Source of the DNA: a bacterium
Lineage (GTDB): Bacteria; Patescibacteriota; Minisyncoccia; Minisyncoccales; UBA10102
Length of the DNA stretch: 58,849 nucleotides
Reading direction: 5' to 3'
Assembly: GCA_030647485.1 (NCBI GenBank)
Contig: JAUSJT010000002.1
Span: 1-58,849, forward strand
Shown here: piece after piece, positions 29,032-54,448 of the stretch
Position numbering within the stretch: position 1 is the first letter of the stretch
Layout: every line of letters begins with the position of its first letter
Made by a program: the position numbers and the translations under genes
The notes under the pieces: generated by a model
Told to the model about the DNA's origin: nothing
Seen by the model: the letters and a program-made list of their open reading frames with translations, nothing else
The model's database searches: none

Positions 29032-29508
29032 ATGACGAAAGAATCACTGGATATAATTGAACATGTGACGCGGGAATTCTTGGGGAAGCTCGGGGTGGAG
29101 GGGGAGATAAGGGTTGAGAGCAACCAGGAAGGAGAAGTTTCCGTGGAGGTAACGCTCCAAGAGCCCCAGCTTTTTATTGGAGAGCGGGGGCAGACCATGT
29201 TTGAAATCTCCCACATCCTCAAGGCGTTGGTGAGGAGAAAAATAGAAGAACCCGTGCGCCTTGCGTTTGATATCAACGACTATCAGAAAAACAAGGAGCA
29301 GTATTTAAGAGAACTTGCACGGACTACTGCAGACGAAGTTGTCCTATCCAAAAAAGATAAAGAACTCCCCGCAATGACGCCAGGAGAAAGGCGCATTGTA
29401 CATTTGGAGCTCGCAGAACGCCAGGATGTTGTTTCAGAAAGCGTGGGCGAGGGCCCAGAGCGCCACGTGGTGGTTAAAGTGAAAACAACAGCAATTAGCG
29501 CGTCTTAG
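29032..29508 (+). CDS. jag: Jag/KhpB KH-R3H RNA-binding protein
   Basis: LFIGERGQTM, DINDY, MTPGERRIVH, SESVGEGPERHVVV. Confidence 0.9.
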   Translation: MTKESLDIIEHVTREFLGKLGVEGEIRVESNQEGEVSVEVTLQEPQLFIGERGQTMFEISHILKALVRRKIEEPVRLAFDINDYQKNKEQYLRELARTTADEVVLSKKDKELPAMTPGERRIVHLELAERQDVVSESVGEGPERHVVVKVKTTAISAS

Positions 29509-29590
29509 TGGAAGGCATAAGAAGTGCGGGTGCTGCAAGGCGTCATGCGCTTTTTGTGGGTAAGCTCAATATGAGTAGAGTTAACCAAAA

Positions 29591-29615
29591 ATGTTAGACG
29601 TTCAACGTCTAACAT
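29591..29615. repeat. 25-bp palindrome ATGTTAGACGTT-C-AACGTCTAACAT
   Basis: Perfect 12-bp arms; degenerate relative at 46192-46211. Confidence 0.85.
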
Positions 29616-29629
29616 ACGCCGTCTACCGA

Positions 29630-29722
29630 GAGTTGGCAGAAAGGCAAGATGTTATTTCAGAGAGCGCGGGAGAAGGTGCCGAGAGAAGGGTGGTAATCTT
29701 GCCCCAAAGGGTAACTTCTTAA
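29630..29722 (+). pseudogene. Stranded, diverged copy of the jag 3' end
   Basis: ELAERQDVISESAGEGAERRVVI versus jag ELAERQDVVSESVGEGPERHVVV (18/23 aa). Confidence 0.85.
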
Positions 29723-29742
29723 TCGTAGCCCCTATATCCTTT

Positions 29743-30912
29743 CTACTTGTCCGGTAGCCCATCTACCTGTCCGGGATTTTGGCACTCAGACCTAGAGATG
29801 ACTTCAACGCCACGAATGTCATCTTTCATATCATTGTGGTTTCTTTTGCAGTCTGAAAACCGATAGTTAAAACTGTAACAGGTAATATCGGGAATAGATC
29901 TATTAAAGCAAATACGTTGTTCTTCGGTGTTGAAGGCTTCCTCATCAGTTGACTTCTCCCAGAATCTTACCGCATCATCCCCCTCGGTGATAAGCACTGA
30001 ATTCACGTCAGAACCTATGCCTTCAAAACTTTGTTGTCCGGAGAAGAATTGTTTTGTAGAGCGCCGTCCTTCAAAGTTTTTTCTGTCCAAGGTAAAGATC
30101 ACAGCGTCTAGCTCGTTTTCTGTTGGTACCGTGATGCCAGGACTTTTATGGGTTGGCCCCTTAGCTGGATCGTACTTGGATACCTTAAAGCTTTTGATAT
30201 TATCGTTCCATAGGGTCGGCTTTATTAGAAAGCCAGCAGGATCCCCCGTAAGCCAGTATCCTTTCATTTGTTCCACCGAGGTTGTAAAGTAGAGAACTTG
30301 ACCATCCGAGTGCTCGGACACCTTCTTTTCAAAAAGAGTAATCTCAAAAGGTCCTCGAATACGAATTGCATTCACGGTGCCGGTCCAGTCGTCTACGTCT
30401 TGGGGCTTGCCAAAATACCAGTATTCGTTTTCATCGCCAACGCAGGCCTCTTTTTTGCAAAGGTATACACCATCACCTGCGGCGCCTGCGGCGCCAGCTT
30501 GAATGCCTGGGAGCGAAGGCCCTTTCAGTGTGGTGAGCTCTGGGTTGATAATTTGCAGAATTATGAAAGAGGACAAAACAAGCAAGAGCCCCAAGAGGGC
30601 CATTTTTATTTTATCTTTTGCGTCTCCAGTATCGGCTGGGTTTCCTTGAGAAGTCATCCATTTCACGCCTCCCCATACGATCATGACAAACGCAGCTAAC
30701 CCGGAAATCATCACAAAGAACGTATAGAGCCATGCCACGATCTGTTCTATTGGCATGTCAAGCTTTAGAGGCAATCCACCGACTGAGGGATAACAAAGGT
30801 TTAATTTATTATCTTCCCCAGTTACAGGCGGACACTTCACCGCAGTAGTGATGCTCGGGATTATGGCACCCGCTAAGGCAATTAGTAATAAAAGAGTAAG
30901 AACAAATTTCAT
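29743..30912 (-). CDS. CPR-type (VirB2/TrbC-like) pilin fused to beta/gamma-crystallin-like repeats
   Basis: Signal peptide, two-TM pilin (VWGGVKWMTSQGN..AKDKIKMALLGL..IINPEL), then WTGTVNAIRI, WNDNIKSFKV, IGSDVNSVLI, MKDDIRGVEV. Confidence 0.7.
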   Translation of the reverse strand: MKFVLTLLLLIALAGAIIPSITTAVKCPPVTGEDNKLNLCYPSVGGLPLKLDMPIEQIVAWLYTFFVMISGLAAFVMIVWGGVKWMTSQGNPADTGDAKDKIKMALLGLLLVLSSFIILQIINPELTTLKGPSLPGIQAGAAGAAGDGVYLCKKEACVGDENEYWYFGKPQDVDDWTGTVNAIRIRGPFEITLFEKKVSEHSDGQVLYFTTSVEQMKGYWLTGDPAGFLIKPTLWNDNIKSFKVSKYDPAKGPTHKSPGITVPTENELDAVIFTLDRKNFEGRRSTKQFFSGQQSFEGIGSDVNSVLITEGDDAVRFWEKSTDEEAFNTEEQRICFNRSIPDITCYSFNYRFSDCKRNHNDMKDDIRGVEVISRSECQNPGQVDGLPDK

Positions 30913-30925
30913 ATATCTTATCGTA

Positions 30926-31426
30926 TCATTTTCCTCGTACAGTGGAAATCACTGCCCATGTCCACACCACAAATATGCTCAAAATAGGAATCAAGCCGCC
31001 CAGAAAGAATAGTAGGCCTCTTTTGAGCGCCCGCCCCGTTGCTTTCTTTCTCGCTGCTATGCTTGCTTGCTGTGACTGGCGAAAATCCTGCCGTACTTTG
31101 GGCGCTTGGCGGACTCTTTCAATTTGTTCTCTTGCAGCTTCTATCCTTCCTGACTTCCACACCATCCAAAGGATTAAGAAACCGCCGAGAATGAGGTTTA
31201 CAATAACTCCTATGGCCAGCACAACATCAAGAATGTCAATAATGATTGCAAGAAACAGGACTACGATAACATCAGGATCCAAAAAACTTCCCTGGGGAGT
31301 TCCCTGTTGCTGGCTTGTTGCCCCCTGGGATTGTCCAGTATCTTGGGCTGGGGCAACTTCTTGTGGGGGTGCTGTGGTTGCTGCTTCAGCCATTTGTTGT
31401 ATCTGCCTTGTCCTTATATTCCTCAA
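30926..31426 (-). CDS. Hypothetical membrane protein
   Basis: TM segments around a basic helix; co-oriented and overlapping the ATPase 3' end. Confidence 0.7.
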   Translation of the reverse strand: MRNIRTRQIQQMAEAATTAPPQEVAPAQDTGQSQGATSQQQGTPQGSFLDPDVIVVLFLAIIIDILDVVLAIGVIVNLILGGFLILWMVWKSGRIEAAREQIERVRQAPKVRQDFRQSQQASIAARKKATGRALKRGLLFFLGGLIPILSIFVVWTWAVISTVRGK

Positions 31427-33191
31427 CCGTCTTCTTTCTCAAGAGTTCTTCAGGAGACGTGGTGATGATCTCATGCTCTGCGGGAGACGCAACAACCTTA
31501 ATGGCAACATGCTTTTGGCCCGCAAAGAATATGCCCTCTCCCACTTCGGTTTCCAGCAAAAGATTCTTTTCTTGCGAGGTTAAATTGAAGGACTTTTTGA
31601 CGAGGTCTATGGTTGCCGGGCTTTGCTTCATTAATATTTGTATGGAAGAGTTCGTGATAATGGGTCTTCCATACTGCGATTTCATAAAGTCTCCCACATC
31701 TTGGGTGATGGTGGTAACGCCAAGATAGTACTTGCGTGCTCTCTTCGCAATGCCGTACAAGAATGAAGCTCCATCTTCTGACTGCATTATCCACCATGCC
31801 TCGTCTATAACCAGGATTCGTTTCTTGAGTTCAGACCTTACCTTGTTCCATATGTAGCGCATGATAATGTACATTGCCATGGGGCGCAGACCCTCTTCCA
31901 TGTCGCGAATGCCGAACGTAATAAGTTTGTTGTCTAAAGCTATATTCGTTGGCTTATTGAAGAAATTCTCATATGTACCCTTGGTGAATTTCCTTAGTCT
32001 GCGTACCAGGGATTCTGCTCCCTCCATGCCGCCTAGCACTTGCTCTAAATCCTCCATCAAGGGGATGTTGGCTGCCCAGGTTGCAGGGTTAGAATCTACC
32101 CTAATGTCTTTTGCGGCATAGGTTTCTGATATAGCCCGGTCCATAACAGCATCTTCTTCCGCGCTTAATCCCCCCAGCATAATTCGCATTAAACCAACAA
32201 GGTTGATGATGTTTGACCTCAACACGTCTTCTGGCTTTTCATCTTCTCTTGGGGTTGCCAGGTCAAAGGGGTTGATATGGTTTTCAGAACCAAGAGAAAT
32301 GTTAAAGAATGAGCCCCCTACTGCGCTTGACAGGGTTTTATACTCGTTTTCCGGATCTAGAATAATCACATCAGTCCCGGTCATTAGTTGGCGCAATACT
32401 TCGAGTTTCACTGCGTACGACTTGCCACTCCCACTTTTTGCGAATAAAACTTCGTTGGCGTTTTCCAAAGAGAACCTGTCAAACAAAATTAAAGAGTTAT
32501 TGTGACGATTAATGCCATAGAGCACCCCTTCGTTAGAGCTCAAGTCAAAAGACACAAAGGGAAAGGTAGAAGACAAGGGCTCTGTGTTCATAGATGTGTG
32601 GACTCCTATAAGGTCTTTGCCATACGGAAGACATGAGTTAAACCCTTCCTTCTGCTGGTACAGCGCAGGCTTTATATAAATGAGGCGGGATTCAAATATG
32701 GAGCGCAAGGTTGTTTCAATCTTTCTCAATTCTTCTTCTGTTTCTCCGTATATAGTTATATACAGGCCGAACTTAAACATCTTTTCTTGCGCGGTCATAA
32801 GACGATCTCGCAACCCCTCTAAATCCTGGAATCCGGTTTCAAGCTCGGGATCCCGCACCAAGCCCTTGTCCTCTTTTTCTATAAGCTCTGATTGTATCTC
32901 CGTAACCTTTCTGCGCAGCTGTTTTAATACGAATCCCGTATCAACAGGATGTATATGTATGGAGATATCCATGGGCACATCCAAGTTAATGGCAGAAGAG
33001 AGCCACGCTGCAGAAAGATACCTGGGGTATGAGAACACGAAGAAGGACTTTGCCAAGCGTCCCCCCATTTCCAAGTATCCTGTCTGTATCTTTACTGAAG
33101 CCGGGGCAATGATGTCTTTGGAGGTTGTGACTTCAGCCTCAAAGATCTTTTCTGGGGTATTATCTTTTTTCTTGAGAAAAGGGATGTTCAT
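31386..33191 (-). CDS. VirB4-like ATPase
   Basis: Walker A AKSGSGKS, ILDPENEY, INPFDL, Walker B LVIDEAW, RARKYYLG, TITQDVGDF. Confidence 0.88.
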   Translation of the reverse strand: MNIPFLKKKDNTPEKIFEAEVTTSKDIIAPASVKIQTGYLEMGGRLAKSFFVFSYPRYLSAAWLSSAINLDVPMDISIHIHPVDTGFVLKQLRRKVTEIQSELIEKEDKGLVRDPELETGFQDLEGLRDRLMTAQEKMFKFGLYITIYGETEEELRKIETTLRSIFESRLIYIKPALYQQKEGFNSCLPYGKDLIGVHTSMNTEPLSSTFPFVSFDLSSNEGVLYGINRHNNSLILFDRFSLENANEVLFAKSGSGKSYAVKLEVLRQLMTGTDVIILDPENEYKTLSSAVGGSFFNISLGSENHINPFDLATPREDEKPEDVLRSNIINLVGLMRIMLGGLSAEEDAVMDRAISETYAAKDIRVDSNPATWAANIPLMEDLEQVLGGMEGAESLVRRLRKFTKGTYENFFNKPTNIALDNKLITFGIRDMEEGLRPMAMYIIMRYIWNKVRSELKKRILVIDEAWWIMQSEDGASFLYGIAKRARKYYLGVTTITQDVGDFMKSQYGRPIITNSSIQILMKQSPATIDLVKKSFNLTSQEKNLLLETEVGEGIFFAGQKHVAIKVVASPAEHEIITTSPEELLRKKTVEEYKDKADTTNG

Positions 33192-33811
33192 TTCAATATT
33201 TCAGGAGGTATTTCAGGGTAGTATCCTACCTCTGATTCTTCTGGATGATGGTAGCTCCATAAGAGTTCAATAAGCTCCTCTGTGTTTAAGGGGACTACTT
33301 GCAAGCCAGCCCTCCGTAATCCTAACGCAACGTATTCCATTCTCTGCCAGAGCTGATTTTTCATTCTTTGAAATTCTTCTTCTGACAAGGATCCTGCGAG
33401 TTTCGGCTTGCCACCGTCTACAACCTCAAAGAAAGAGAAAGGAACCGTCACAAAGAAGTTCTTTGCCATAATAGACCCCCCGGTAATGAGGCGTTCTACA
33501 AACAAGCGATAGTCCTCGGTTTGTTTCTTTAACAGCTCGTTCTGCTGGTTGGTTTCCAGCTCTTTTAAATAGTCTAGGTAGCCTGTGATGTTCAACCTTC
33601 TTGATTGTATGGAGATTTGGAGGGGGAAGTCCAAAGAGTTCAGAAAGCTTTGGAATTGGAATATAATTGCCTGTTGCTCCTCCTCGGATTTTAAGGCAAA
33701 GTTTTGGGAAGAAACCATGAGTACTCCCCGCACTTGCCTACCCCTCAATACCAAAACCCCCTCTTTTATCTCTTCAATCTCCAGAAATTGTTGCGTAGAC
33801 GTCTCTTTCAT
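33188..33811 (-). CDS. Conserved hypothetical protein of the VirB4/PrgI cluster
   Basis: STQQFLEIEEI, NFALKSEEEQ, FLNSLDFPLQI; overlaps the VirB4 start. Confidence 0.75.
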   Translation of the reverse strand: MKETSTQQFLEIEEIKEGVLVLRGRQVRGVLMVSSQNFALKSEEEQQAIIFQFQSFLNSLDFPLQISIQSRRLNITGYLDYLKELETNQQNELLKKQTEDYRLFVERLITGGSIMAKNFFVTVPFSFFEVVDGGKPKLAGSLSEEEFQRMKNQLWQRMEYVALGLRRAGLQVVPLNTEELIELLWSYHHPEESEVGYYPEIPPEILK

Positions 33812-33918
33812 CCCGTACGAGATGTTAGGTTGATAATTTCTGTTATACTCTTATTCATATGCGCATTGATATTCCCGTTGCTGATATATATTGCATAAAA
33901 TCTCGTTCGGGATTCATG

Positions 33919-34341
33919 TCATTTATTTGTTTCCACGTGCGTTGCCAGCGTCTTTATCTTGCTTTCTTTTACCAGCTTTACCTTGGGTTTTTGTATGCCT
34001 TCCTGCACGGGTTCTGCATATACGGAGTCACTCCCCGCCTTCGCCGGGGCTTGGGCGGGCAAGCCTTTCTTCCAGATGTATATTTTTGGTCCTACGCTAA
34101 AATGCAAAAAATTCATCAAGATGATTGGGAACGATCTTCCTCCCACGTTCACGAATGCAAAAAGGAAGCCAATAGATAGAAATACAATCGCAGAGAATAG
34201 GAACACGAAAAAGGGAGCTGTAAAATATAAAAAGAAAGCAGCCGCGGTAGGCACGCCCAAATACACAAACTGTTTAAAGGTAAAGGGGCCTACCACCCGT
34301 GCCTCTCGTTCTATAAATTGTGGGACTTGGAATCGTAGCAT
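33919..34341 (-). CDS. PrgI family membrane protein
   Basis: FQVPQFIERE..VVGPFTFKQF, two TM helices, PKIYIW. Confidence 0.85.
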   Translation of the reverse strand: MLRFQVPQFIEREARVVGPFTFKQFVYLGVPTAAAFFLYFTAPFFVFLFSAIVFLSIGFLFAFVNVGGRSFPIILMNFLHFSVGPKIYIWKKGLPAQAPAKAGSDSVYAEPVQEGIQKPKVKLVKESKIKTLATHVETNK

Positions 34342-34344
34342 AGT

Positions 34345-34782
34345 TTATTCAAGGGGTTCCCTATACGTATCGTCTCCTTTGGGTTCTTCTGGCTTTTCTT
34401 TTGTAGTTTCAGCTTCTTCGGGCTTTGGAGTTACTATCTTTGCCGTAACCTCTATTTCCATTCTGTGGAGCTGTTCTAAAGCAGGCTTTACCGGGTAGAA
34501 TACCAGTCTGTTTATGTCCCTGGATATTGCGTCTGCCAGTGTTTTAGGGAGTTTTACCTCTGCTTCCAGTACGCCAGAGAACTCTTGGGGCAAGAGAAGG
34601 CCCATTAAGACATACCCCACGCGATCTGCAACCTCGCCGACCCGATTGTCGTTAATGCCGTAGCTTTCACAGGTGTTCCTAATTTCTTCTGCCGTTTCCA
34701 TAGAGAAAATAGCCTCCTGGAGCTCTTCTGGAAGCTTCTCGTATATCTTATCTAGTTGTTCTTGGGTGTATTGCCTTGGCAT
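34345..34782 (-). CDS. Conserved hypothetical protein
   Basis: LPEELQEAIFS, GYVLMGLL, INRLVF; 3-nt gap to the prgI-like gene. Confidence 0.75.
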   Translation of the reverse strand: MPRQYTQEQLDKIYEKLPEELQEAIFSMETAEEIRNTCESYGINDNRVGEVADRVGYVLMGLLLPQEFSGVLEAEVKLPKTLADAISRDINRLVFYPVKPALEQLHRMEIEVTAKIVTPKPEEAETTKEKPEEPKGDDTYREPLE

Positions 34783-34791
34783 AGAGAGGTA

Positions 34792-34820
34792 TTGACATTT
34801 TTGAAGTTATAGTGTATAAT
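34792..34820 (+). promoter_or_regulatory. Perfect consensus sigma70 promoter
   Basis: TTGACA-17 nt-TATAAT. Confidence 0.85.
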
Positions 34821-34973
34821 GTTGCCAGTTAGGATAGCAAGGAAATCGAGTATCCTTGCTCGGGCAGCACATTCACATACCTATCAGTAAGGGGAAAGGA
34901 AAGGAGGTGACCTTAAAGTTCGGGCAGTGACCAGAGTTACGTAGCAACCAGATTATAACGCAGGAGGAAGAAC

Positions 34974-35303
34974 ATGATTGAAGCCTGGGCATTCTACCTT
35001 ACTCTGGTGATCGCCATCGCGTTGGCGATTGGCTTGATCGTCGCCGGGGTTGTCTGGCTCATGAAACGAGGCAATCCCCGGATCCGTGCCGCGCGCCAGC
35101 GGCGTCGGCAAGCCCAGAAGCGGGCCGACGAACAGGCCCGTCACACCATTGAGGTGTTGGCGGAGGCAGATGCGCTAACCGATGAGGTTGCGGATCTACG
35201 CCAAGACTTGGCAGGAGAGCAGCAGCGCGATCAGTTGAGAGCTATGCGGACCACTCTGCGGCCAGGAGTTAAGTCAGGCGCTGACGAAGACTCTAAAGCG
35301 TAG
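34974..35303 (+). CDS. Orphan single-TM protein with coiled-coil tail (109 aa)
   Basis: AGGAGG RBS, upstream consensus promoter, downstream hairpin; visibly more GC/CpG-rich than neighbours. Confidence 0.75.
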   Translation: MIEAWAFYLTLVIAIALAIGLIVAGVVWLMKRGNPRIRAARQRRRQAQKRADEQARHTIEVLAEADALTDEVADLRQDLAGEQQRDQLRAMRTTLRPGVKSGADEDSKA

Positions 35304-35324
35304 GCAGTTCTTTCCCGGGTAAGA

Positions 35325-35368
35325 GGGGGAGAAGAGAAAGGGATTCTATCCTAAGTATCTTCTCCCCC
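35325..35368. terminator. Hairpin between convergent genes
   Basis: GGGGGAGAAGA / TCTTCTCCCCC 11-bp stem. Confidence 0.6.
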
Positions 35369-35390
35369 GCTTTGTTATATTTGAAAGTGC

Positions 35391-38924: not shown

Positions 38925-38958
38925 GAAGTTCTTTTATTATACTACACTTCCCTCATTG

Positions 38959-39717: not shown

Positions 39718-39757
39718 CTTAATTCCATTAAGTTGTGGATAACTTAATGGGATTAAG
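39718..39757. repeat. 40-bp double-palindrome/DnaA-box element, copy A (contains the rsmA stop)
   Basis: CTTAATTCCATTAAG-TTGTGGATAA-CTTAATGGGATTAAG. Confidence 0.9.
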
Positions 39758-45329: not shown

Positions 45330-45835
45330 TTCGGTTTTCTTAGTAAGTATTTCTCTACGGATTCTTCCAAATCAATGAATTCGTCTGCAACCTCGCGAAG
45401 CTTGGAAGACGTGGACTTCCCGAATGCGATGACTTCCACTCGCTTTCCATGATTTTGCAGGTATTCAACAAGAGGCACATAATCTCCGTCTCCTGAAACG
45501 AGAACAATGGCATCTACGCCAGATGATGTTTTAATAGCATCCACTGCTATGCCCACGTCCCAGTCGGCTTTCTTTATCCCCCCGTAGTACTCCTGGAGGT
45601 CTTTGACCCGAGTTTCAATGCCAAGGTTAATGAGTGCGTCAAAAAAAGGTTTTTCTTCCCCTGTCTTGGTGCGCACCACGTATGCGAACGCGCGGATGAG
45701 CTTTCTGCCCGCAACCGCGGTCTTTAATACTTCTTTGAAATTGACCCTGGCCTGGTAGATGTTTTTTGCAGAATGATAGAGATTCTGCACATCAATAAAG
45801 ATGGCAACTTCCTGGTCCTTATTTTTAAGACTCAT
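45305..45835 (-). CDS. NYN (LabA/DUF88) PIN-like domain protein
   Basis: IFIDVQNL, KADWDVGIAVD, LVSGDGDYVPLV, GKRVEV, ADEFIDL. Confidence 0.9.
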   Translation of the reverse strand: MSLKNKDQEVAIFIDVQNLYHSAKNIYQARVNFKEVLKTAVAGRKLIRAFAYVVRTKTGEEKPFFDALINLGIETRVKDLQEYYGGIKKADWDVGIAVDAIKTSSGVDAIVLVSGDGDYVPLVEYLQNHGKRVEVIAFGKSTSSKLREVADEFIDLEESVEKYLLRKPKWPLSLIQ

Positions 45836-45841
45836 TGGTGA

Positions 45842-46108
45842 TTATTTCTTCAACCCGCTTTTCTTTATAAACGCATTGTACTGCCTGGGGCTTTCCTCTT
45901 TCAGATATGCCAGCAGGGTTCTGCGCCTGGCAACCTGCCTCAAGAGCCCCCTCTTTGAGGAAAAATCTTTAGGGAATTTCTTTAAATGCAAGAGCAGTTT
46001 TCGTATCTGCTCTGAAAGCAGCGCTATTTGCACCTCGGCAGACCCTGTGTCTGCAGGGTTTATTTTAAATTCGTCTATAAACTTGGTTTTCTCCTTTGGA
46101 GTAAGCAT
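45842..46108 (-). CDS. rpsO: 30S ribosomal protein S15
   Basis: DTGSAEVQIALL, HLK..PKDFSSKRGLL..V.RRRTLL.YL. Confidence 0.96.
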   Translation of the reverse strand: MLTPKEKTKFIDEFKINPADTGSAEVQIALLSEQIRKLLLHLKKFPKDFSSKRGLLRQVARRRTLLAYLKEESPRQYNAFIKKSGLKK

Positions 46109-46247
46109 ATTCCTTCTGTATCATAAAAAACAAAAAAACGCAAGTAAGCGTTTTCTGGTGGGACGTAAGAACGTAACATTTGCTTCGCAAATTGTACGTT
46201 CAACGTTCCAACAGCGTTTAAATTTTCTTTGAAAATTTATTACGCTG

Positions 46248-46321
46248 TGCCCCCGTCGAGATTCGAACTCGAAACCTTATCCTTAAGAGGGATCTGCTCT
46301 AGCCAGTTGAGCTACGGGGGC
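46248..46321 (-). tRNA. tRNA-Lys(CTT)
   Basis: GCCCCCG..CGGGGGC-A, anticodon loop CTCTTAA, T-loop TTCGAAT; CCA not encoded. Confidence 0.92.
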
Positions 46322-46322
46322 G

Positions 46323-46439
46323 AAAAGCAAACTGCTTTGCTTTTTGCGGATTTGCGCCACTCGTCTCAGGCGAGCGAATAATGCAAATCCCGGGCCTGTT
46401 TTAGAAAACTGTGGCACGCAAATCGTTTTCTAAAACAGG
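46323..46439. repeat. Three consecutive hairpins between tRNA-Lys and the pilin gene
   Basis: AAAAGCAAA-CTGC-TTTGCTTTT; GGATTTGC..GCAAATCC; CCTGTTTTAGAAAAC..GTTTTCTAAAACAGG. Confidence 0.75.
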
Positions 46440-46449
46440 TACATTCTTG

Positions 46450-46911
46450 TTAAGGTCCGCACTTAATGTTCCACCACTCTCCAAGGCCCGTCCATGGTGC
46501 GACCCCAAGGAATGAAAGTATGGACATCACCATTACCCAGGCAATATATACCACAAGAAGGCCTATAACAACAGCGGTGATAATGTCTTTCCCCGTCTTT
46601 TGGCGTTCTGGCTGTCCTGCAGCGATAAGAATATAGAAACCTCCAACCAAGATAAGGAGAGTTGCTATTAATGGAACAACGGCAACCCCATTATTTACGG
46701 AAGGAGAGGGTACCAGGAAGAATATAATAATGTTGTTGATGAGCTTAAAGATGTCGCAGAATCCGCACGCCTCCTTATTATCTATCTTCCCATCTATTGG
46801 CTGGCCATTACTTCCATCAATTCCGCATTGGACAATTCCCGCATCAGCAGTCAAAGGCACAACAGAAAAAAGCAGGAAGAGTACGGTGAGTATAGGGATG
46901 ATTTTTCTCAT
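46450..46911 (-). CDS. CPR-type (VirB2/TrbC-like) pilin
   Basis: Signal peptide, GIVQCG..CGFCDIFKLINNII, GGFYILIAAGQPE..GKDIITAVVIGLLVVY. Confidence 0.75.
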   Translation of the reverse strand: MRKIIPILTVLFLLFSVVPLTADAGIVQCGIDGSNGQPIDGKIDNKEACGFCDIFKLINNIIIFFLVPSPSVNNGVAVVPLIATLLILVGGFYILIAAGQPERQKTGKDIITAVVIGLLVVYIAWVMVMSILSFLGVAPWTGLGEWWNIKCGP

Positions 46912-46931
46912 GTGTTTAGCATATCATATTT

Positions 46932-47006
46932 TGGTGTCCCCGGGAGGATTCGAACCCCCACTAACAGATTCGAAGTCTGTCGTGATATCCGTTTCACTAC
47001 GGGGAC
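46932..47006 (-). tRNA. tRNA-Arg(TCG)
   Basis: GTCCCCG..CGGGGAC-A-CCA, anticodon loop CTTCGAA, A20 in the D-loop. Confidence 0.88.
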
Positions 47007-47068
47007 GCGCGCTTCAATCCTATCTTATTTCATTGAAAAATTCAATGATTTCACCTAGTATGGAGGTT

Positions 47069-48547
47069 ATGAAAGGAAGCATTCCCAAAGAGGTAAAATC
47101 AGTGGTTGCAGAACTTGAAAAACAGGGTTTTGAGGCATATATCGTGGGAGGATGCGTAAGAGATATGTTTTTGGGCAGGGAACCTCAAGACTGGGATGTT
47201 GCAACCTCTGCTACCCCAGAAGAGGTTCAGAAAGTATTCCCAGATAATTTTTATGAGAATAAGTTCTTCACGGTTACGGTGCGCACGCAAGCTTCAGACC
47301 CCAAACTTAAAGAGATAGAGGTGACGAGTTACCGGTCTGACTTAAGATACGGAGACCGAAGACATCCTGAAGAAGTGCAGTATGCAAAAACCGTTGAGGA
47401 AGATCTTGCGAGGCGAGATTTCACGGTAAATGCGATTGCCCTTGGGATAGGGAAACCAGGTTTCCCAAGGAAACCTGGTTTCCAAATCCTAGATCCTTTT
47501 GGCGGAAGAGAAGACCTAAAAGCCAAGCTCATCCGGGCAGTAGGAACCCCAGATGAGCGATTTCAAGAAGACGCACTGCGCATGATGCGGGGTGTGAGGT
47601 TTTGCGCAACTCTTGGATTCGCGCTTGAGCCAGAAACACGCAAAGCCATTGCAAAGAACGTGTCCCTTCTTAAAGAAATTTCGCAAGAGCGCATACGGGA
47701 CGAGTTTGCAAAAATCATCATGGCAGAGAAAGCAGGGGAGGGCGTAGAGACGCTGCGGGAGCTCGGGCTTTTAGAATTCATTATCCCAGAGCTTGTTGAG
47801 GGATACGGCGTGACCCAGAACAAACACCATATCTACACCGTATGGGAACATAATCTTTTATCGTTAGAGTACGCGGTAAAGCAAAAATGGAGTTTTGAGA
47901 TACGTTTGGCTTCCCTCTTGCATGACGTTGGCAAACCTAGAGTAAAGAAGGGAGAAGGCAAAGATTCAACGTTCTATGGACATGAGGTTGTGGGTTCTCG
48001 TCTGGCCAAGCAGATTCTTTCACGCCTGAAGTTTCCCCAAAAAACCATTGAGAAAATAGTTACCCTAGTGCGTTATCACCTGTTTTATTACAACGTGGGA
48101 GAAGTGACAGAAGCTTCCATACGTCGGCTTGTGAAGAACGTAGGACCAGAAAACACAGAAGAGCTGCTGCAGGTTCGCATGGCAGACCGCATTGGGTCTG
48201 GCGTCCCCAAGGCAGAACCCTACAAGTTGCGTCATTTGAGGTATTTGATTGACAAAGTGTCTCAAGATCCAATTTCTGCAAAGATGCTCAAGGTGAAAGG
48301 AGATGACGTTATGAGCATACTTGGCATTACGCCTGGCCCCAGGATAGGATGGATTCTTGACGCGCTCTTGGCCGCTGTGTTGGAAGATCCAAAGAAGAAC
48401 GAGAAGGATATCCTTACTCAATATGTGAAAGAGTTAGGGGGCTTGCCAGAAGAGAAGCTTCGTGCGATATCAAAGAAGGCGGAGCAGGAGCGCGAGAATG
48501 TCGAAATGAAAAGAGATGAAATGACAAAAGAGAAGTATTGGGTTTGA
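47069..48547 (+). CDS. cca: CCA-adding tRNA nucleotidyltransferase with HD domain
   Basis: VGGCVRD, DWDVAT, EVTSYR, EDLARRDFTVNA, EDALRMMR, SQERIRDE, LLHDVGKP. The track's start at 46730 is an over-extension. Confidence 0.92.
   Translation: MKGSIPKEVKSVVAELEKQGFEAYIVGGCVRDMFLGREPQDWDVATSATPEEVQKVFPDNFYENKFFTVTVRTQASDPKLKEIEVTSYRSDLRYGDRRHPEEVQYAKTVEEDLARRDFTVNAIALGIGKPGFPRKPGFQILDPFGGREDLKAKLIRAVGTPDERFQEDALRMMRGVRFCATLGFALEPETRKAIAKNVSLLKEISQERIRDEFAKIIMAEKAGEGVETLRELGLLEFIIPELVEGYGVTQNKHHIYTVWEHNLLSLEYAVKQKWSFEIRLASLLHDVGKPRVKKGEGKDSTFYGHEVVGSRLAKQILSRLKFPQKTIEKIVTLVRYHLFYYNVGEVTEASIRRLVKNVGPENTEELLQVRMADRIGSGVPKAEPYKLRHLRYLIDKVSQDPISAKMLKVKGDDVMSILGITPGPRIGWILDALLAAVLEDPKKNEKDILTQYVKELGGLPEEKLRAISKKAEQERENVEMKRDEMTKEKYWV
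47451..47483. repeat. 33-bp in-frame double palindrome inside cca
   Basis: GGAAACCAGGTTTCC-CAA-GGAAACCTGGTTTCC; encodes about GKPGFPRKPGF. Confidence 0.88.
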
Positions 48548-48568
48548 AACCAACTGCTTGGTTTCAAA
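48543..48568. repeat. Hairpin overlapping the cca stop
   Basis: TTTGAAACCAA-CTGC-TTGGTTTCAAA. Confidence 0.7.
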
Positions 48569-48644
48569 GGGCATTTTAGCGAGCAGTCCCTGCGAGCGTT
48601 AAGAAATGCCCCGGGGTTCGCCGGAGGCGAACTACACTATACCT

Positions 48645-49223
48645 ATGGATTATACATCAAGGCTGTATGCATTTTTACAACCGGTAGACCCTACCTATGT
48701 GCAGAGGGTGAAGAAATATCTTGATCCCCAGCCCCAAGACAAAATACTGGAAATAGGGTGCGGTCGCGGATACACGACCAAGAGGGTTCAGTACATCACA
48801 CCTCAGACATTTGGCATTGATCTTAACGCCAAAGCAATACAAAACGGAGTGGCCCAGAATCTGCAGGTCATGGATGCCGAAGCCCTTGAGTTTTCAGACA
48901 ATACCTTTGACAAGATCTACTCCTTTCACACCGTTGAGCATATCCCGAATATTGCCAAAGCCTTTCGCGAAATGGTTCGTGTGTTAAAGCCAAGAGGTAA
49001 GATAATGCTTGTGTATCCCGCAGAGCCCATACGAGGTATGTTCGCAATGTTTGCAGCCGCAGTTCTCCTAAAAAATCCATTCCGTGCGCGAGAAATTCAT
49101 ATGCATAAATTGTCCCCTGCGATTATACAACGGCTGATCTCTGGATTTGGACTTGAACATGTGCAGAGCTCTTTTTCACTCTGGCTTCCTGAGTTTCGCA
49201 CCATATTGCAAAAAAGAATATAG
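48645..49223 (+). CDS. Class I SAM-dependent methyltransferase
   Basis: ILEIGCGRG, GIDLN, MDAEALEFSDNTFD, EHIP, RVLKPRG. Confidence 0.9.
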   Translation: MDYTSRLYAFLQPVDPTYVQRVKKYLDPQPQDKILEIGCGRGYTTKRVQYITPQTFGIDLNAKAIQNGVAQNLQVMDAEALEFSDNTFDKIYSFHTVEHIPNIAKAFREMVRVLKPRGKIMLVYPAEPIRGMFAMFAAAVLLKNPFRAREIHMHKLSPAIIQRLISGFGLEHVQSSFSLWLPEFRTILQKRI

Positions 49224-49231
49224 TAAAGTTT

Positions 49232-49304
49232 CGGGGTGTAGCCTAGTAGCCAAGGCGCCGGCTTCGGGAGTCGGAGATCAGAGGTGCAAATCCTCTCACC
49301 CCGA
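49232..49304 (+). tRNA. tRNA-Pro(CGG)
   Basis: CGGGGTG..CACCCCG-A, anticodon loop TTCGGGA, T-loop TGCAAAT. Confidence 0.92.
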
Positions 49305-49332
49305 CAAACAATTTTTCAACAGAAAAATTGCA

Positions 49333-49410
49333 AATCACCCCGTGGTGGAAAAATAGGAGCGAAGCGACGTAAGAAACCGAAGGTGTCTTAAGCCAGGGGT
49401 CGGGGTGATT
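49333..49410 (+). repeat. 78-bp inverted-repeat element, copy 2 (4 nt upstream of tRNA-Ala)
   Basis: CAAATCACCCCG / CGGGGTGATTTG perfect 12-bp IR; 75/78 to copy 1. Confidence 0.9.
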
Positions 49411-49414
49411 TGAT

Positions 49415-49485
49415 GGGCCCATAGTAAAACGGCATTACGCAGCATTCGCATTGCTGAGGTCCGGGTTCAATTCCCGGTGGGTCCA
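49415..49485 (+). tRNA. tRNA-Ala(CGC)
   Basis: GGGCCCA..TGGGTCC-A with G3:U70, anticodon loop TTCGCAT; CCA not encoded. Confidence 0.9.
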
Positions 49486-49492
49486 CCCAATA

Positions 49493-50212
49493 ATGATTTC
49501 TCCTATTGAATACAATGCGGCATGGTCCAAGACCTGTCTCCGCTCCCCAGAAATTTGGTACACGTGGAGGATTTTGGAATCCTATGTTAAAAAAGCAGAA
49601 AAACGATTGGAAATAGGGGCGGGAATGTTCCCCAAGTTCTCTGTGCAGGGCACCTATTTTCTTGATACGAGCTTGCACGCCATCAATGAGTTGAATAAGC
49701 GCGGAGGGAAAGGGGTTGTTAAGGGAGCTGAAGAGCAACTCCCCTTTCAGAAAGATTTCTTTGATCTTATAGGAGCGTTTGAGGTCTTAGAACATTTAAA
49801 AAGGCCAGGGCGTGCCATACGCGAGGTAGCGAAAACAATAAAACCAGGAGGCCTATTCATTCTCTCTGTTCCCATGAACCCCCAGTATTGGTCTCCCTGG
49901 GATGTGTTTGCAGGGCATGTGCAGAGATTTGAGCCAGCGCAGCTGAACGCTCTTCTTGAGAAAGAGGGCTTTGAAGTAAGACATTGCTATGTTGTTTGGA
50001 AGCTTGCTAAAAAGCGCGTATTCTCATGGTTTATGCGTTTGGCAGGATCTCTGCCCTTACACTTCCCCTTTTTTTTCTTTTTCCTGTATAACTACGCGGT
50101 TATTCCCTATACATGGTTTGGAAGAACGTTTTCTAAGTCCCGTCATTACTCCTCTCTCCTTGGCATTCCCCAGGATTCCACCTGTGCACTTGTCGTATGT
50201 GCAAAACGCTAG
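49493..50212 (+). CDS. Class I SAM-dependent methyltransferase (type 11-like)
   Basis: LEIGAG, AEEQLPFQKDFFD, FEVLEHL, IKPGG..LSVP, WDVFAGHVQRF. Confidence 0.88.
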   Translation: MISPIEYNAAWSKTCLRSPEIWYTWRILESYVKKAEKRLEIGAGMFPKFSVQGTYFLDTSLHAINELNKRGGKGVVKGAEEQLPFQKDFFDLIGAFEVLEHLKRPGRAIREVAKTIKPGGLFILSVPMNPQYWSPWDVFAGHVQRFEPAQLNALLEKEGFEVRHCYVVWKLAKKRVFSWFMRLAGSLPLHFPFFFFFLYNYAVIPYTWFGRTFSKSRHYSSLLGIPQDSTCALVVCAKR

Positions 50213-50303
50213 GACATTGACAAGGAACAGCATGTGTGCAAGAGTAAAAGCGGAAGAAGATGTCCGCGATGCGGGCATTCTTTTTACCCGCTAGAATAAC
50301 ATT

Positions 50304-51512
50304 ATGAGCATGGATTTTAAAAATCTTTCTCTCTTGCTAGACAGCATTGCAGAGGAAAAAGGGTTATCAAAAGAGCGCATCCTGGAGGCCGTGGAGCAGG
50401 CCTTGGCTGCAGCATACAAAAAAGAATACGGAACCCGAGGGCAGGTGGTGAAAGCGAAATTGAACCCCAAAAACGGGGAGGTTGAGTTTTGGTTAGTGAA
50501 ACTCGTCGTTGACGAGGACATGATTTATTCAGAAGAGGAATTGGGGAAGTTGAAGGATACTGTGATAATCCCAGAACAGGGAAAAGGAGAAGATGCAGCA
50601 GCCGAGGGCAAGAAGGTGCGTTTCCATGAAGAACGCCACATGATGCTGAAAGATGCAAAGAAGATAAATCCAAAGATAAAGACGGGAGAAGATCTTGAAA
50701 CAAAGTTAGAGTCAAAGACCGATTACGGCAGAATTGCCGCGCAAACCGCAAAGCAAGTCATACTCCAGAAAATACGGGAAGCAGAGCGAGAATCCATACT
50801 CTTAGAATTCAAATCAAAAGAGGGAAATTTGGTTTCAGGTATTGTACAAAGAATGGAAGGCGTGACCGTGTTTGTGGACTTGGGCAAAACTCTGGGAGTG
50901 CTGCCTAGAGAAGAGCAGGTTCCAGGAGAATTCTATCGATTGGGCCAGCGCCTCAAGTTTTACGTTATAAGCGTGGAAGATTCTACGCGCGGACCCCAGA
51001 TTCTCTTGTCTCGCGCATACCCCAAGTTTATCTCCAAGCTTTTTGAGCTTGAGGTTCCGGAGATCTCTGCAGGCTCCGTTGAAATCAAGGGATTGGCAAG
51101 AGAGCCGGGATCCAGGTCTAAAATAGCAGTGGAGTCGCATGCAGACGGCGTAGACCCGGTAGGATCCATGGTTGGGCAGCGAGGCACCAGGGTCTCTGCG
51201 GTTATTAACGAGTTGGGAGGAGAAAAGATTGATATTATTGAATGGGCAGAAGATCAAGAGCAGTATGTAGCCAATGCGCTGTCTCCAGCCAAGGTGTTGG
51301 AGGTGAAGGCTTTAGACAAGAATAGGGCCATTGCCATTGTTCCTGAAGACCAGCTCTCCCTTGCAATAGGTAGGGAAGGTCAGAATGTAAGGTTAGCTGC
51401 AAAGCTTACCGGGTGGAAAATAGACGTGAGAAGTCCGGAGAATAAAGATGTTGAGGTAGAAGAAAAGGAGTCTGGACAGGAAGAAGAAAAAACTGATACA
51501 ATAGCATCATGA
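50304..51512 (+). CDS. nusA: Transcription factor NusA
   Basis: [13 protein letters not shown]1, [54 protein letters not shown]. Confidence 0.98.
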
Positions 51513-52093
51513 ACCTGATCCCTACGGTTATAGAAAAGAGCCAGTACGGAGAGCGGGCATATGACATCTATTCCCGCCTATTGAAAGACCGTATTATTTT
51601 CTTGGGAGGCGCGGTGAACGATATGGTTGCAAATTCCATCATTGCCCAAATGTTGTTCTTGGCGTCCAAAGACCCGGCAAAACCCATTCAGTTTTACATC
51701 AACACCCCGGGAGGAATGGTTACCTCGGGCCTGGCCATTTATGACACCATGCAGTATATGAAGTGCCCGGTGTCTACAGTGTGCGTGGGCATGGCAGCTT
51801 CCATGGGAGCAGTTCTACTTGCCGCAGGCGCAAAGGGAAAGCGCTTTGCGCTCCCCAATAGCCAGATTATGATTCACCAGCCTATGGGAGGGGCGCAGGG
51901 TCAGGCCAGTGAAATTGAGATTACCGCAAAGCAGATAGTGAAATTAAGAGAGCAGATGAATGGCATTCTTGCAAAGCATACTGGCCAGCCCCTGGAGGTT
52001 ATCTCAAAAGACACTGATCGTGACTTTTACCTCACCGCAGAAGAGGCAAAGACGTACGGTATCATTGATGAGGTGCTTGGGTCCAAGCCCTAA
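51509..52093 (+). CDS. clpP: ATP-dependent Clp protease proteolytic subunit
   Basis: [39 protein letters not shown]. Confidence 0.98.
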
Positions 52094-52094
52094 T

Positions 52095-52156
52095 CCTGTG
52101 GATAACTTAGCTAAGCTAAGTTTGCCTCTCTTCACCGAGAGGTTTTTTGTGTGGTA
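52095..52156 (+). repeat. 62-bp direct repeat, left copy (DnaA box + palindrome + terminator)
   Basis: 54/62 identical to 53068-53129; includes the CCTCTC-TTCACC-GAGAGG-TTTTTT terminator. Confidence 0.9.
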
Positions 52157-52198
52157 AACTAACTGTACTGTAGTGCTTATACGTGGTATAATAATGGT

Positions 52199-52483
52199 AT
52201 GGAGACGCTAAAGAAAAAGTCCATGTTTTGGGATGTTGATGCTATAGATACTAAAAAGAACGAGCAATTTATCATAGGCAGAATACTGGATTTTGGAGAT
52301 GCAGATGACCTTGAATGGGCGATGAGTATATACGGGCCAGAGAAGGTGAAAAAGGGGGTGCTAGAGAGCAAAACATTAAGCAGGAAGTCTCTCTCTTTTT
52401 GGTGTCAGTATTTTTATCTTGATCCATCACAATGTATAAGCAAACTCTTGGGGAAAACACAGAGCGCGTTCTGGAAAAGATAG
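52199..52483 (+). CDS. DUF6922-like putative antitoxin
   Basis: FWDVD..FIIGRIL.FGD..DLEW..YG..SLSFW; paired with the nucleotidyltransferase. Confidence 0.75.
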   Translation: METLKKKSMFWDVDAIDTKKNEQFIIGRILDFGDADDLEWAMSIYGPEKVKKGVLESKTLSRKSLSFWCQYFYLDPSQCISKLLGKTQSAFWKR

Positions 52484-53061
52484 CAATGAGCGGAGTTCTG
52501 GGTCAGTTCTATCTAGCTGGCGGAACCGCCCTGGCGCTTTTGCTCGGCCATAGGAAATCCGAGGACTTGGATTGGTTTTCGGCTAAGCCATTCTCCAATG
52601 GTACCATTAAGAAGAAACTCTCCGAATCTGGTATGTTTCAACTTACAGGAGAAGAAGAAGGTACGATTCACGGTGTTCTAGATGAGGTGAAGATAAGTTT
52701 CTTGCGCTATGATTATGAAATGCTGTTTCCGTTCGTTCGTTTTGAGAGCGTGAATGTCGCAGAGGAACGCGATATTGCCGCGATGAAGATCGACGCATTG
52801 TCTTCGCGTGGGAGTAGAAAGGACTTTGTGGATATTTATTTTCTTTTGCAGAAGTACACTCTTTCCGAGTTGATAGGATTTTTTGAGAAAAAATACAAAA
52901 ACATACAATTCAATAAACTCCATATCTTAAAGAGTTTGGTCTTCTTTGATGATGCAGAATTAGAACCCATGCCCATCATGATGCAAGTAGTGAGCTGGGA
53001 GGAAATAAAACGGAAAATACAGGGAGAAACGACCGCAATGTTAAAGCTGGGTATCGTTTGA
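52432..53061 (+). CDS. AbiEii/AbiGii-family nucleotidyltransferase toxin
   Basis: FYLAGGTALALLLGHRKSEDLDWF, DIAAMK, SRGSRKDFVDIY, KSLVFFDDAE. Confidence 0.88.
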   Translation: MYKQTLGENTERVLEKIAMSGVLGQFYLAGGTALALLLGHRKSEDLDWFSAKPFSNGTIKKKLSESGMFQLTGEEEGTIHGVLDEVKISFLRYDYEMLFPFVRFESVNVAEERDIAAMKIDALSSRGSRKDFVDIYFLLQKYTLSELIGFFEKKYKNIQFNKLHILKSLVFFDDAELEPMPIMMQVVSWEEIKRKIQGETTAMLKLGIV

Positions 53062-53067
53062 GCGACA

Positions 53068-53129
53068 CCTGTGGATAACTTAAAGAGATTAAGTTTGCCT
53101 CTCTTCACTGGGAGGTTTTTTGTGTGGTA
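53068..53129 (+). repeat. 62-bp direct repeat, right copy
   Basis: See left copy; the terminator stem is retained through a G-U substitution. Confidence 0.9.
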
Positions 53130-53178
53130 TACCCCCACACCAACACAGGTTTGCTGTTTGTTTGGTGTGGGGGTATAC
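53127..53178. repeat. 17-bp perfect inverted repeat (CCCCCACA family)
   Basis: GTATACCCCCACACCAA / TTGGTGTGGGGGTATAC. Confidence 0.85.
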
Positions 53179-53215
53179 TGAATCAACGAGGTATAATTAC
53201 TAATATACAAGGCCT

Positions 53216-53653
53216 ATGTTTCAACTAGACAAGAAAAACATTCTTATCATAGGAGTAGTGGGAGCAGCCATTCTTGGAGGAATCTATTTGTATTCTTCAG
53301 GAAAGCTTACCCAGCTCACTGGAGGGGCAAAAGAGGAACAGGTTTTTGAAGAAGTAACAAGTATTGCGGGAAAGGTTGTTTCCGTTGACGAAGCAGGCAA
53401 TTCTTTTGTGCTCTTGCAGCCAAAAGAAGAGCGCCAATTTACTGTGAAGCTAGGGGAAAGTACCGCGTTTATCCGCCTGATATTTCCCTTTGACATTGCT
53501 AATCCCCCGGCCGAGGCAACCTTCACTCCAGAACGCAAGGTCATCACCATAGAAGATCTCAAAGAGAATGACCAGGTGTTTGTGCGCGCCTCATCCCCCA
53601 TTAAAACAAATCAGGATATTGTGAGCCCCTTGGAGGTGCAAGTGCTTCCGTAA
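53216..53653 (+). CDS. Hypothetical membrane-anchored protein (OB-fold/DUF5666-like)
   Basis: N-terminal TM; IAGKVVSVD, FTVKL..T.FIR, ITIEDLKENDQVFV. Confidence 0.7.
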   Translation: MFQLDKKNILIIGVVGAAILGGIYLYSSGKLTQLTGGAKEEQVFEEVTSIAGKVVSVDEAGNSFVLLQPKEERQFTVKLGESTAFIRLIFPFDIANPPAEATFTPERKVITIEDLKENDQVFVRASSPIKTNQDIVSPLEVQVLP

Positions 53654-53691
53654 AGCATGCCATAAGATTATCAGTATTTTTGCTATTACTC

Positions 53692-53720
53692 TTGACAAGA
53701 ATATTGTTTTATGAAAGAAT
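53692..53720 (+). promoter_or_regulatory. Candidate promoter of the AbrB-PIN pair
   Basis: TTGACA-17 nt-AAGAAT. Confidence 0.45.
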
Positions 53721-53727
53721 AATAGTA

Positions 53728-53973
53728 ATGGAGAAAATAGTTTCTATAACAAAACAAGGTCAGCTTACTATCCCAAAGAGTTTTTTAGCGGACTTTAAAA
53801 TTCTAGGCGCAACAAAAGCGCTTATACGAAAATTTGGGGATAGCATTATAGTAGAGCCAAAACACGATTTCTGGTCTCTTTCTGGTGTCCTAAAATCCCG
53901 TGTTTCTTTAACTGATAAAGATCTCAAAAAAGCAAGGAAGTCATTTACGCAAGACTGGCCCAGAAAGGTATGA
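53728..53973 (+). CDS. AbrB/MazE-family antitoxin
   Basis: IVSITKQGQLTIPK, IIVEP, FWSLSGVL. Confidence 0.88.
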   Translation: MEKIVSITKQGQLTIPKSFLADFKILGATKALIRKFGDSIIVEPKHDFWSLSGVLKSRVSLTDKDLKKARKSFTQDWPRKV

Positions 53974-54353
53974 AAAAAGAATTGCTTGATACTAATGTTC
54001 TACTGCGGTTTCTGACGGGAGATAACAAAAAACAGCAGCAAGAAGCAGAACGTTGGTTTAAGGAAGCAGAGCAACGCAAAAGAAAGATTGTTGTACTGTC
54101 CCTTGTGGTTGCCGAAACCTGTTTTGTACTGGAGAGTTTCTACAAAATGCAGCGAGAAGACATTGCGGAAGCCCTTGAGATATTCCTAGCTCAAAAATGG
54201 CTTGAGGCGCCAGAGCGCCAAGCGTTGTTAGGCCTTTGGTCTTGGTATCGCCAAGGTCTCCATTTTGTTGATAGTTTTCTTATTTCTTTTGCAAAATCGC
54301 AAAACGCAGGCATTCTCACTTTTGATCGGTCACTTTCTAAAAAAGTCAGTTAA
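53970..54353 (+). CDS. PIN-domain (VapC-like) toxin
   Basis: LLDTNVLLRFL, VVAETCFVL, HFVDSFL, ILTFD; ATGA coupling to the antitoxin. Confidence 0.9.
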   Translation: MKKELLDTNVLLRFLTGDNKKQQQEAERWFKEAEQRKRKIVVLSLVVAETCFVLESFYKMQREDIAEALEIFLAQKWLEAPERQALLGLWSWYRQGLHFVDSFLISFAKSQNAGILTFDRSLSKKVS

Positions 54354-54397
54354 CCAAAGAATATCCACTTACAATGGAGACGGGAGATGATATAATG

Positions 54398-54448
54398 AAA
54401 ACAAAGCAGGATATTGTAGATCCCTTGGAGGTGCAGGTTCTTCCTTGA
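54398..54448 (+). pseudogene. Stranded, diverged copy of the 3' end of gene 53216-53653
   Basis: KTKQDIVDPLEVQVLP* versus KTNQDIVSPLEVQVLP*; 42/51 nt. Confidence 0.85.

Follow-up and report, generated by a model that had tools for sequence, protein, structure and literature searches.

In the stretch of DNA analysed here, three gene ends or gene junctions are followed, a short distance downstream, by a second and diverged copy of themselves, and we lean, with slightly more confidence than doubt, towards reading these features as scars left where this lineage recombined, without an integrase, with diverged relatives at loci that both share. This reading is supported because the cases recur, the divergence is biased towards synonymous sites, the sites are empty in relatives and one of the junctions is variable. 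The stretch, referred to as the window, is 58,849 nt long and constitutes the entire contig C3 of a four-contig, 630-kb metagenome-assembled genome (estimated completeness 98.7%, contamination 0.7%) whose nearest named relatives are Candidatus Wildermuthbacteria. Its loci include jag at the replication-origin end, a cluster resembling a type IV secretion system (T4SS) and a nusA-clpP-X-Y stretch, in which X and Y denote the genes at 53216–53653 and 54459–54860. The repeats lie at jag, behind clpP and at X.

All three repeat pairs reported in an initial annotation of the sequence were found where it had placed them. Their local alignment scores were compared with those of shuffled sequences and amounted to 46 (jag), 85 (post-clpP) and 63 (X) against shuffle maxima of 24–26 (z = 13, 33 and 25, respectively). 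The direct repeats measure 69, 65 and 58 nt, all above 30 bp, each sequence is unique to its own pair genome-wide, and the members of a pair are 70–86% identical (14–30% diverged). The uniform picture of a gene end plus an insert was sustained only in part: the duplicates are real, but the window cases differ in kind, being a coding end without cargo (jag, where the insert carries no gene), an intergenic module (post-clpP) and a coding end with a toxin–antitoxin (TA) pair (X). Duplicates elsewhere in the genome were sought by nucleotide self-comparison and by tblastn searches using the 35 C-terminal and the 35 N-terminal residues of every open reading frame (ORF). Synonymous bias was judged against two nulls, one placing the differences randomly and a stricter one in which the functional copy accepts silent changes only and the relic is free to decay. 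Gene families were taken from Pfam, and an Rfam scan of 28000–56000 returned four tRNAs and nothing else.

Duplicated ends in the window

The jag gene (29032–29508, plus strand) encodes an R3H domain protein (Pfam R3H, E = 8.6e-15) with orthologues of 77–87% identity in Wildermuthbacteria metagenomes. Its functional 3´ end segment (29407–29475) is repeated at 29630–29698 with 48/69 nt and 18/23 amino acids identical, as part of an orphan copy of the gene end (29630–29722, plus strand) that has its own stop codon (29720–29722). Twelve of the 21 nucleotide differences fall at third codon positions and five amino acids are changed, a synonymous bias significant both under random placement (P < 0.0002) and with a neutrally decaying relic (P = 0.00025). 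Gene and relic are separated by a 121-nt non-coding spacer (29509–29629, no strand assigned) with a long hairpin (predicted fold -49 kcal/mol) and a 25-nt palindrome (29591–29615) that scores as a terminator-like site on the minus strand. The relic adjoins a T4SS-pilin-like gene (29743–30912, minus strand; Pfam T4SS_pilin), which is convergent with jag and is its neighbour in relatives as well; in the four relatives examined (L022–L024, L036), jag abuts or overlaps this gene and a second jag end is absent. Compared with relatives, the functional end is as similar as the body of the gene (0.81), and values for the relic are lower (0.72–0.77), so that the relic looks like the foreign piece. This suggests that it may have entered together with the downstream, variable pilin-side DNA.

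Gene X (53216–53653, plus strand) encodes a 145-aa membrane-anchored protein with 67 homologues and no Pfam match. Its end (53600–53657; functional end 53600–53653) is repeated at 54395–54452 with 47/58 nt and 14/17 amino acids identical and the stop codon kept in both. The orphan copy proper (54395–54448, plus strand) comprises the last 17 codons and the stop and lies directly upstream of Y (54459–54860, plus strand; 133 aa). It encodes KTKQDIVDPLEVQVLP followed by the stop, a C-terminus present intact in relatives P0030 and P0035, and the synonymous bias of the pair is marginal (P = 0.01–0.035). Between the copies lies a VapBC-like cassette (53692–54353, plus strand), made up of a promoter-like site (53692–53720), an antitoxin-like gene (53728–53973) and a PIN toxin gene (53970–54353; Pfam PIN). 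The sequence following the stop of X, TAA-AGC-ATG, looks like an old X–Y junction; in relatives, Y starts 1–5 nt beyond the X stop.

Comparison with relatives shows the X–Y site both empty and occupied. Where X orthologues are 77–87% identical (L007, L008/L009, L015, L016), clpP, one module, X and Y follow each other with nothing between. Y comes directly after X in L007, L008, L013, L015 and L016, and the relic is collinear with the X–Y junction of L007 and L015. At L010 the same VapBC cassette follows X (VapC 91% identical) with the same post-stop sequence, and neither relic nor Y is present. At L021 the cassette (85% identical) leads into the last 16 nt of X and then into Y. The relic at the right junction of this one site thus measures 51 nt in the window, 16 nt in L021 and 0 in L010. 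The cassette ends in an outward-facing promoter-like site (54368–54396, plus strand) whose -10 box overlaps the first codon of the relic. An extended -10 box, TGnTATAAT, ends the VapBC cassette in three genomes (window 54368–54396, L010 5145–5175, L021 755–780), and could drive the gene downstream of an insertion.

The post-clpP repeat starts one base past the stop codon of clpP (51509–52093, plus strand; Pfam CLP_protease, E = 3.5e-85). Copy 1 of this intergenic module (52095–52159, plus strand) holds a hairpin resembling a repetitive extragenic palindrome (REP) with a DnaA-box-like core, a terminator-like hairpin (52124–52143) and a -10-like box; copy 2 (53068–53132, plus strand), with a terminator-like site at 53097–53116, is collinear with the single clpP–X spacer of relatives. 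The copies are identical at 56/65 nt and bracket 908 nt containing a DUF6922 and AbiEii two-gene cassette similar to type IV TA systems (52199–53061, plus strand; genes 52199–52483 and 52432–53061, assigned by Pfam). Both match relatives at 56–58/65 nt, and the native copy is indistinguishable by that comparison. The clpP–X site is empty in L007, L008/L009, L015 and L016. In L013 and L014 the gap between clpP and a lone module is filled by an AbiEii cassette of this family that is 41% identical; in L014 the cassette is on the other side of the module and nothing is duplicated. In L017 a hicBA pair occupies the clpP-X-Y stretch, flanked by a 24/27-nt repeat of the REP part. With four different TA cassettes among relatives, the clpP-X-Y stretch is an insertion hot spot. 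A GC-rich hairpin (53127–53178, no strand assigned), read from the sequence, stands beside module copy 2; different GC-rich perfect hairpins are inserted at this one spot of the clpP–X spacer in the window (53127–53178), in L008 (3923–3954) and in L014 (2836–2866 and 2889–2919), within or next to the terminator and the -10 box.

Relatives of the VapBC cassette at unrelated loci (70–73% identical) and of the AbiEii cassette at other loci (61–73%) have no flanking repeats, so the repeats are not part of the cassettes, and the comparison indicates that they are the product of particular events. No relatives of VapC were found in the genome contig collection searched. Nor were VapC or AbiEii relatives found on the viral contigs searched, and thus no phage vehicle is evident.

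The absence of an integrase nearby, noted in the initial annotation, was confirmed: the single match to PF00589 (tyrosine recombinase) in the genome is xerC itself, on contig C2, and PF00239 (serine recombinase) has no match in the genome. Pfam scans of the insert genes revealed no integrase or transposase, and none lies near any window scar. A check for competence genes found those for ComEC, DprA and RecA. The proposed role of palindromes as guides at the junctions found no support as a general one. The post-clpP element belongs to a REP-like family of 28 copies, present at 2.5% of gene junctions, in which a DnaA-box-like core, GGATAAC, stands beside a 15–19-nt palindrome with covarying arms; copies in the window are at 39737, 39967, 40625, 52100 and 53073. 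Such an element is found at the junction in only one of the three window cases, the post-clpP repeat, and in 3/7 scar loci genome-wide; jag, X and murG have none at their junctions. A separate small family, with one member inside a kinase ORF, includes the palindrome behind jag. Its sequence, ATGTTAGACGTTCAACGTCTAACAT, occurs three times (window 29591–29615, C2 253547–253573 and C2 112775–112805), and one copy sits in frame within the histidine-kinase-like ORF. An IS200-like gene of the REP-associated tyrosine transposase (RAYT) type (C2 6967–7686; Y1_Tnp, 25.9 bits, cut-off 23) is flanked by REP-like copies at C2 6583, 6841 and 7692 (region C2:6583–7712). Dispersed gene-border palindromes and a copy-flanked IS200-like Y1 transposase gene, the two marks of REP/RAYT systems, are both found here.

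Duplicated ends elsewhere in the genome

The genome-wide search, which the initial annotation had proposed, brought up more cases outside the window: two relics of xerC, three copies of the murG end, a pair at C2 143253/144388 and a Fic gene. In five instances an orphan C-terminal copy is found downstream of its gene; only the Fic copy is upstream.

Two orphan xerC ends are present on C2, one behind a LAGLIDADG gene and the other behind two more genes. The LAGLIDADG endonuclease gene (C2:268265–268807) overlaps the xerC stop (ATGA), and a displaced xerC end comes immediately after it. The same gene start follows xerC in genome G048, and G049 keeps a remnant only. In most of the family, XerC ends in KRLRDIHRQFHSGKNLK before the stop, which is the sequence of the relics; the functional end here is of a variant type. 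Relic r1 (C2:268806–268859) is identical at 51/54 nt to the working xerC end of G004 (L045), a member of another genus whose XerC is only 58% identical, and the comparison of the functional end with r1 gives a synonymous bias of P < 0.0003. Seventeen nucleotide differences, 14 of them in third codon positions, and two amino-acid changes separate the two relics, which are both non-functional today. Consensus-type xerC relics are also present in G049 and G003, and the differences between those of G000 and G049 are nearly confined to third codon positions. Xer/dif recombination as used by integrative mobile elements exploiting Xer (IMEX) was ruled out for the xerC relics, where conservation is at the amino-acid and not the nucleotide level.

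Because the divergence at jag and xerC is biased towards synonymous sites, the two ends would not have been copied on the spot; at least for these two genes, both ends appear to have worked as gene ends in separate lineages before becoming adjacent. The substitution patterns thus point to two alleles in the window pairs rather than to a copy made at insertion.

The end of murG with the murG–gltX junction is present in three copies, 89–94% identical, which delimit an ATP-binding cassette (ABC) transporter pair and a DUF6036 nucleotidyltransferase pair. The copies extend exactly through ATGAA of the next gene, gltX. Across the family, gltX begins 12–25 nt after murG, and the site is empty in L052, L055, L056, L059 and L060. 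At C2 143253/144388, two copies of a module composed of a REP hairpin, a terminator and a -10 box enclose a pair of MerR-like and DUF4325 genes. The Fic gene (C4:97100–98365 region) has a 98% copy of its own last 62 nt upstream; just before this copy lies the end of a different, degraded Fic-like gene.

Several other similarities were rejected as scars. Those between tRNAs (C1 25855, 37999 and 62267, C2 220855, C4 138636) involve different tRNA genes, and further genome-wide matches are tandem paralogues. The pair at C4 53365/53744 is a diversity-generating retroelement (C4:52822–55254): a 219-aa gene carries the variable repeat (53365–53474) at its 3´ end, the second copy (53744–53853) is the template repeat, each of the 18 mismatches coincides with an adenine of the template, and an RVT_1 reverse transcriptase gene is found nearby (C4 54085–55254). 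A 64-nt element, 94% identical between the groES/groEL gap (C2:44594–44657) and the position before an htpX-like gene (46944–47007), is more likely a shared regulatory element and may be a heat-shock control element.

Origin of the duplications

In the reading that we prefer, DNA arriving from a relative would contain the conserved gene or intergenic junction that is also present here, linked to non-homologous material (a TA pair, transporter genes, a gene for a homing endonuclease or a variable pilin region). Pairing with the chromosome would be through the conserved side only, and the other end would be joined without homology. As an outcome, two versions of the gene end or junction, one resident and one imported, would flank the insert, one keeping the gene intact and the other left as an orphan of 16–105 nt. 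Delivery would probably be by natural transformation. Joining may have occurred by homology-facilitated illegitimate recombination (HFIR) with the joint upstream of the end of homology, or by a single crossover of a circularised fragment after which the second copy was trimmed; were the crossover to span a longer stretch, such trimming would also account for relic lengths of 51, 16 and 0 nt. Likenesses between relics and ends that work elsewhere are seen for xerC r1 and the G004 end and for the X relic and the C-terminus of relatives. The HFIR mechanism put forward at the outset agrees with the recurrence, the synonymous bias, the lack of an integrase, the uptake genes and the variable junction, but HFIR predicts deletion (PMC3240628) and the loci here show duplication. 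On the related idea, TA and other cargo may be what was captured; at jag, where cargo is lacking, the relic itself seems to be the import.

Other points weigh against recombination with relatives as the common origin. No donor was identified, and clpP, X and jag show no recombination breakpoint. When identity to L007, L008, L010, L014 and L016 was followed along clpP, X and the cassette in sliding windows, no usable signal emerged; all available relatives are only 75–85% identical. At such identity, RecA-type pairing is expected to be inefficient. Of the comparisons bearing on the direction of import, the one for jag makes the relic look foreign, and those for X and clpP are uninformative. The expectation of synonymous bias, met with a significant result at jag and xerC and a marginal one at X, found no signal at murG and Fic, pairs too similar for the test, and these two fit target duplication on the spot equally well. 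The boundary of the murG copies looks more precise than a random illegitimate joint. Finally, the near-silent divergence of the xerC relics in G000 from those in G049 is not what dead DNA would lead one to expect, and if these share one event, neutral relics are hard to reconcile with it.

Duplication on the spot would arise if a cassette entered a staggered break and 35–100 bp of target were copied to both sides, the copies then drifting apart. The layout, with repeats above 30 bp, an empty site and no mobility gene, is that of the Furuta/Kobayashi criteria (PMC2853133), and for the near-identical murG and Fic pairs, the former with their exact extension through the gltX start codon, it is a good reading. 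As an account of all loci it is unlikely: a neutral relic is rejected for jag and xerC and marginally disfavoured for X, and third positions dominate the differences even between the two non-functional xerC relics. Site-specific integration, by elements with an attP-like replacement end and a recombinase acting in trans (Xer, the IS200/RAYT-like enzyme or a lost integrase), would give a layout like that of islands targeting the 3´ ends of genes and tRNAs. The REP-like palindrome could serve as the site, in line with its presence at 3/7 scar loci against 2.5% of gene junctions and with the REP-type repeat around hicBA in L017, and the Xer-type recombinase and the Y1 transposase are both encoded on C2. 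We nevertheless regard this as improbable, given that no core sequence is common to the loci, REP is missing at jag, X and murG, the palindrome centre is not the same in the two post-clpP copies, the length of the X–Y relic varies, and related cassettes occur elsewhere without repeats and, in L014, at the same site without duplication.

A nuclease might also cut the conserved end, with repair copying in an element and a cleavage-resistant replacement end. The overlap of the LAGLIDADG gene with the xerC stop, the displaced end directly after it and the same gene start in G048 make homing a specific alternative for xerC; moreover, GIY-YIG genes stand beside AbiEii cassettes in two relatives, and the genome itself has four small GIY-YIG genes and yields five GIY-YIG matches. 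None of the five is on the window contig, none of the three window scars contains or adjoins a nuclease gene, and standard homing leaves no displaced copy, which gives homing as the general cause only a slight chance. Mixed-strain mis-assembly or random similarity is hardly credible, even for a metagenome assembly in four contigs. The alignment scores far exceed those of shuffled sequences, 14–30% divergence is far beyond strain-level variation, independent assemblies show like structures (the L021 relic, the L017 repeat, the xerC relics of G049 and G003), and the genome is nearly complete and little contaminated.

Known systems and significance

Restriction-modification (RM) gene units have been described as inserting with long target duplication (Nobusato et al., 2000, as relayed by Furuta, Abe and Kobayashi, 2010; PMC2853133), mostly in naturally competent species and by a mechanism that is not established (PMC2853133). 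The likeness to the loci described here extends to a small selfish cassette without a mobility gene, to repeats above 30 bp that often overlap the 3´ end of a gene, and to their alignment with a single-copy counterpart where the site is empty in a relative, seen here at clpP–X and X–Y (L007, L008), jag–pilin (L022–L024) and murG–gltX (L052, L055, L060). The cargo differs, consisting here of TA-type pairs, a homing-endonuclease gene, transporter genes or nothing. So does the divergence: the published repeats are near-identical (for example 44/46 or 47/47; PMC2853133), whereas the window pairs are 14–30% diverged with synonymous bias, and near-identical repeats are found only at murG and Fic.

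In the loci of Rhs, contact-dependent inhibition (CDI) and type VI secretion system (T6SS) effectors, C-terminal displacement leaves orphan 3´ ends and immunity genes (Jackson et al., 2009, as relayed by Kirchberger et al., 2017; PMC5361080). For T6SS and Rhs loci, homology-anchored displacement leaving such orphans has been proposed, with HFIR as the mechanism (PMC5361080). There, as in our model, a conserved 5´ body acts as anchor, and an incoming end with linked cargo pushes the resident end downstream. Orphans may be stacked, as are the two xerC relics, and the orphan ends diverged while coding, as at xerC, jag and X. The ends described here, in contrast, are homologous housekeeping termini rather than polymorphic toxin tips, the cargo is unrelated to them, the relics are only 16–105 nt long, and no selection for retaining the displaced module is evident. 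HFIR itself has been described in transformable bacteria (de Vries and Wackernagel, 2002; Prudhomme et al., 2002, as relayed in PMC5361080 and PMC3240628). One homologous anchor and one non-homologous joint would be common to HFIR and our loci, as would incoming DNA that encodes no recombinase, and the genome has competence genes. According to a study in E. coli, HFIR is predicted to delete recipient DNA, and duplications of homologous segments come from single crossovers with circular molecules (PMC3240628); the window loci duplicate rather than delete, with loss of Y only in L010. The right junctions at X–Y vary, and with no donor identified, neither a crossover nor a microhomology was demonstrable at the joints.

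Integrative elements at the 3´ ends of tRNA and protein genes carry a replacement end. The order of functional end, cargo and displaced end is the same as here, and the target gene stays intact. The loci described here differ in having no integrase and no shared core, inserts of 0.1–1.7 kb and, at one site, a variable junction. Elements of this kind are discussed in connection with long target duplication (PMC2853133), and TA islets have been argued to spread by recombination at flanking core genes (PMC13617665).

One speculative possibility, to which we attach quite a low probability, is that cassettes in bacteria of the candidate phyla radiation (CPR) move without a recombinase and are addressed by homology. 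A cassette would carry a copy of a conserved gene end or junction, reaching up to the next start codon or including the module of REP, terminator and promoter, and this copy would serve as a landing address in any related genome. The flanking repeats might later permit loop-out and re-entry, and displaced copies are perhaps not inert, as the near-silent differences between xerC relics across genomes might indicate.

On present evidence, the pattern is one already described for restriction-modification and Rhs toxin genes and does not constitute a new class of mechanism. It carries two little-known descriptions, the "long target duplication" of the former and the "C-terminal displacement" of the latter, over to housekeeping genes in an uncultured phylum. 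Despite tiny genomes and few classical mobile elements, CPR bacteria hold many TA and accessory cassettes. The scars would provide a readable record of how genes enter such genomes through recombination at conserved neighbours without an integrase. The relics mark insertion hot spots, and closer genomes could allow the events to be dated and the imported side to be told from the resident one.

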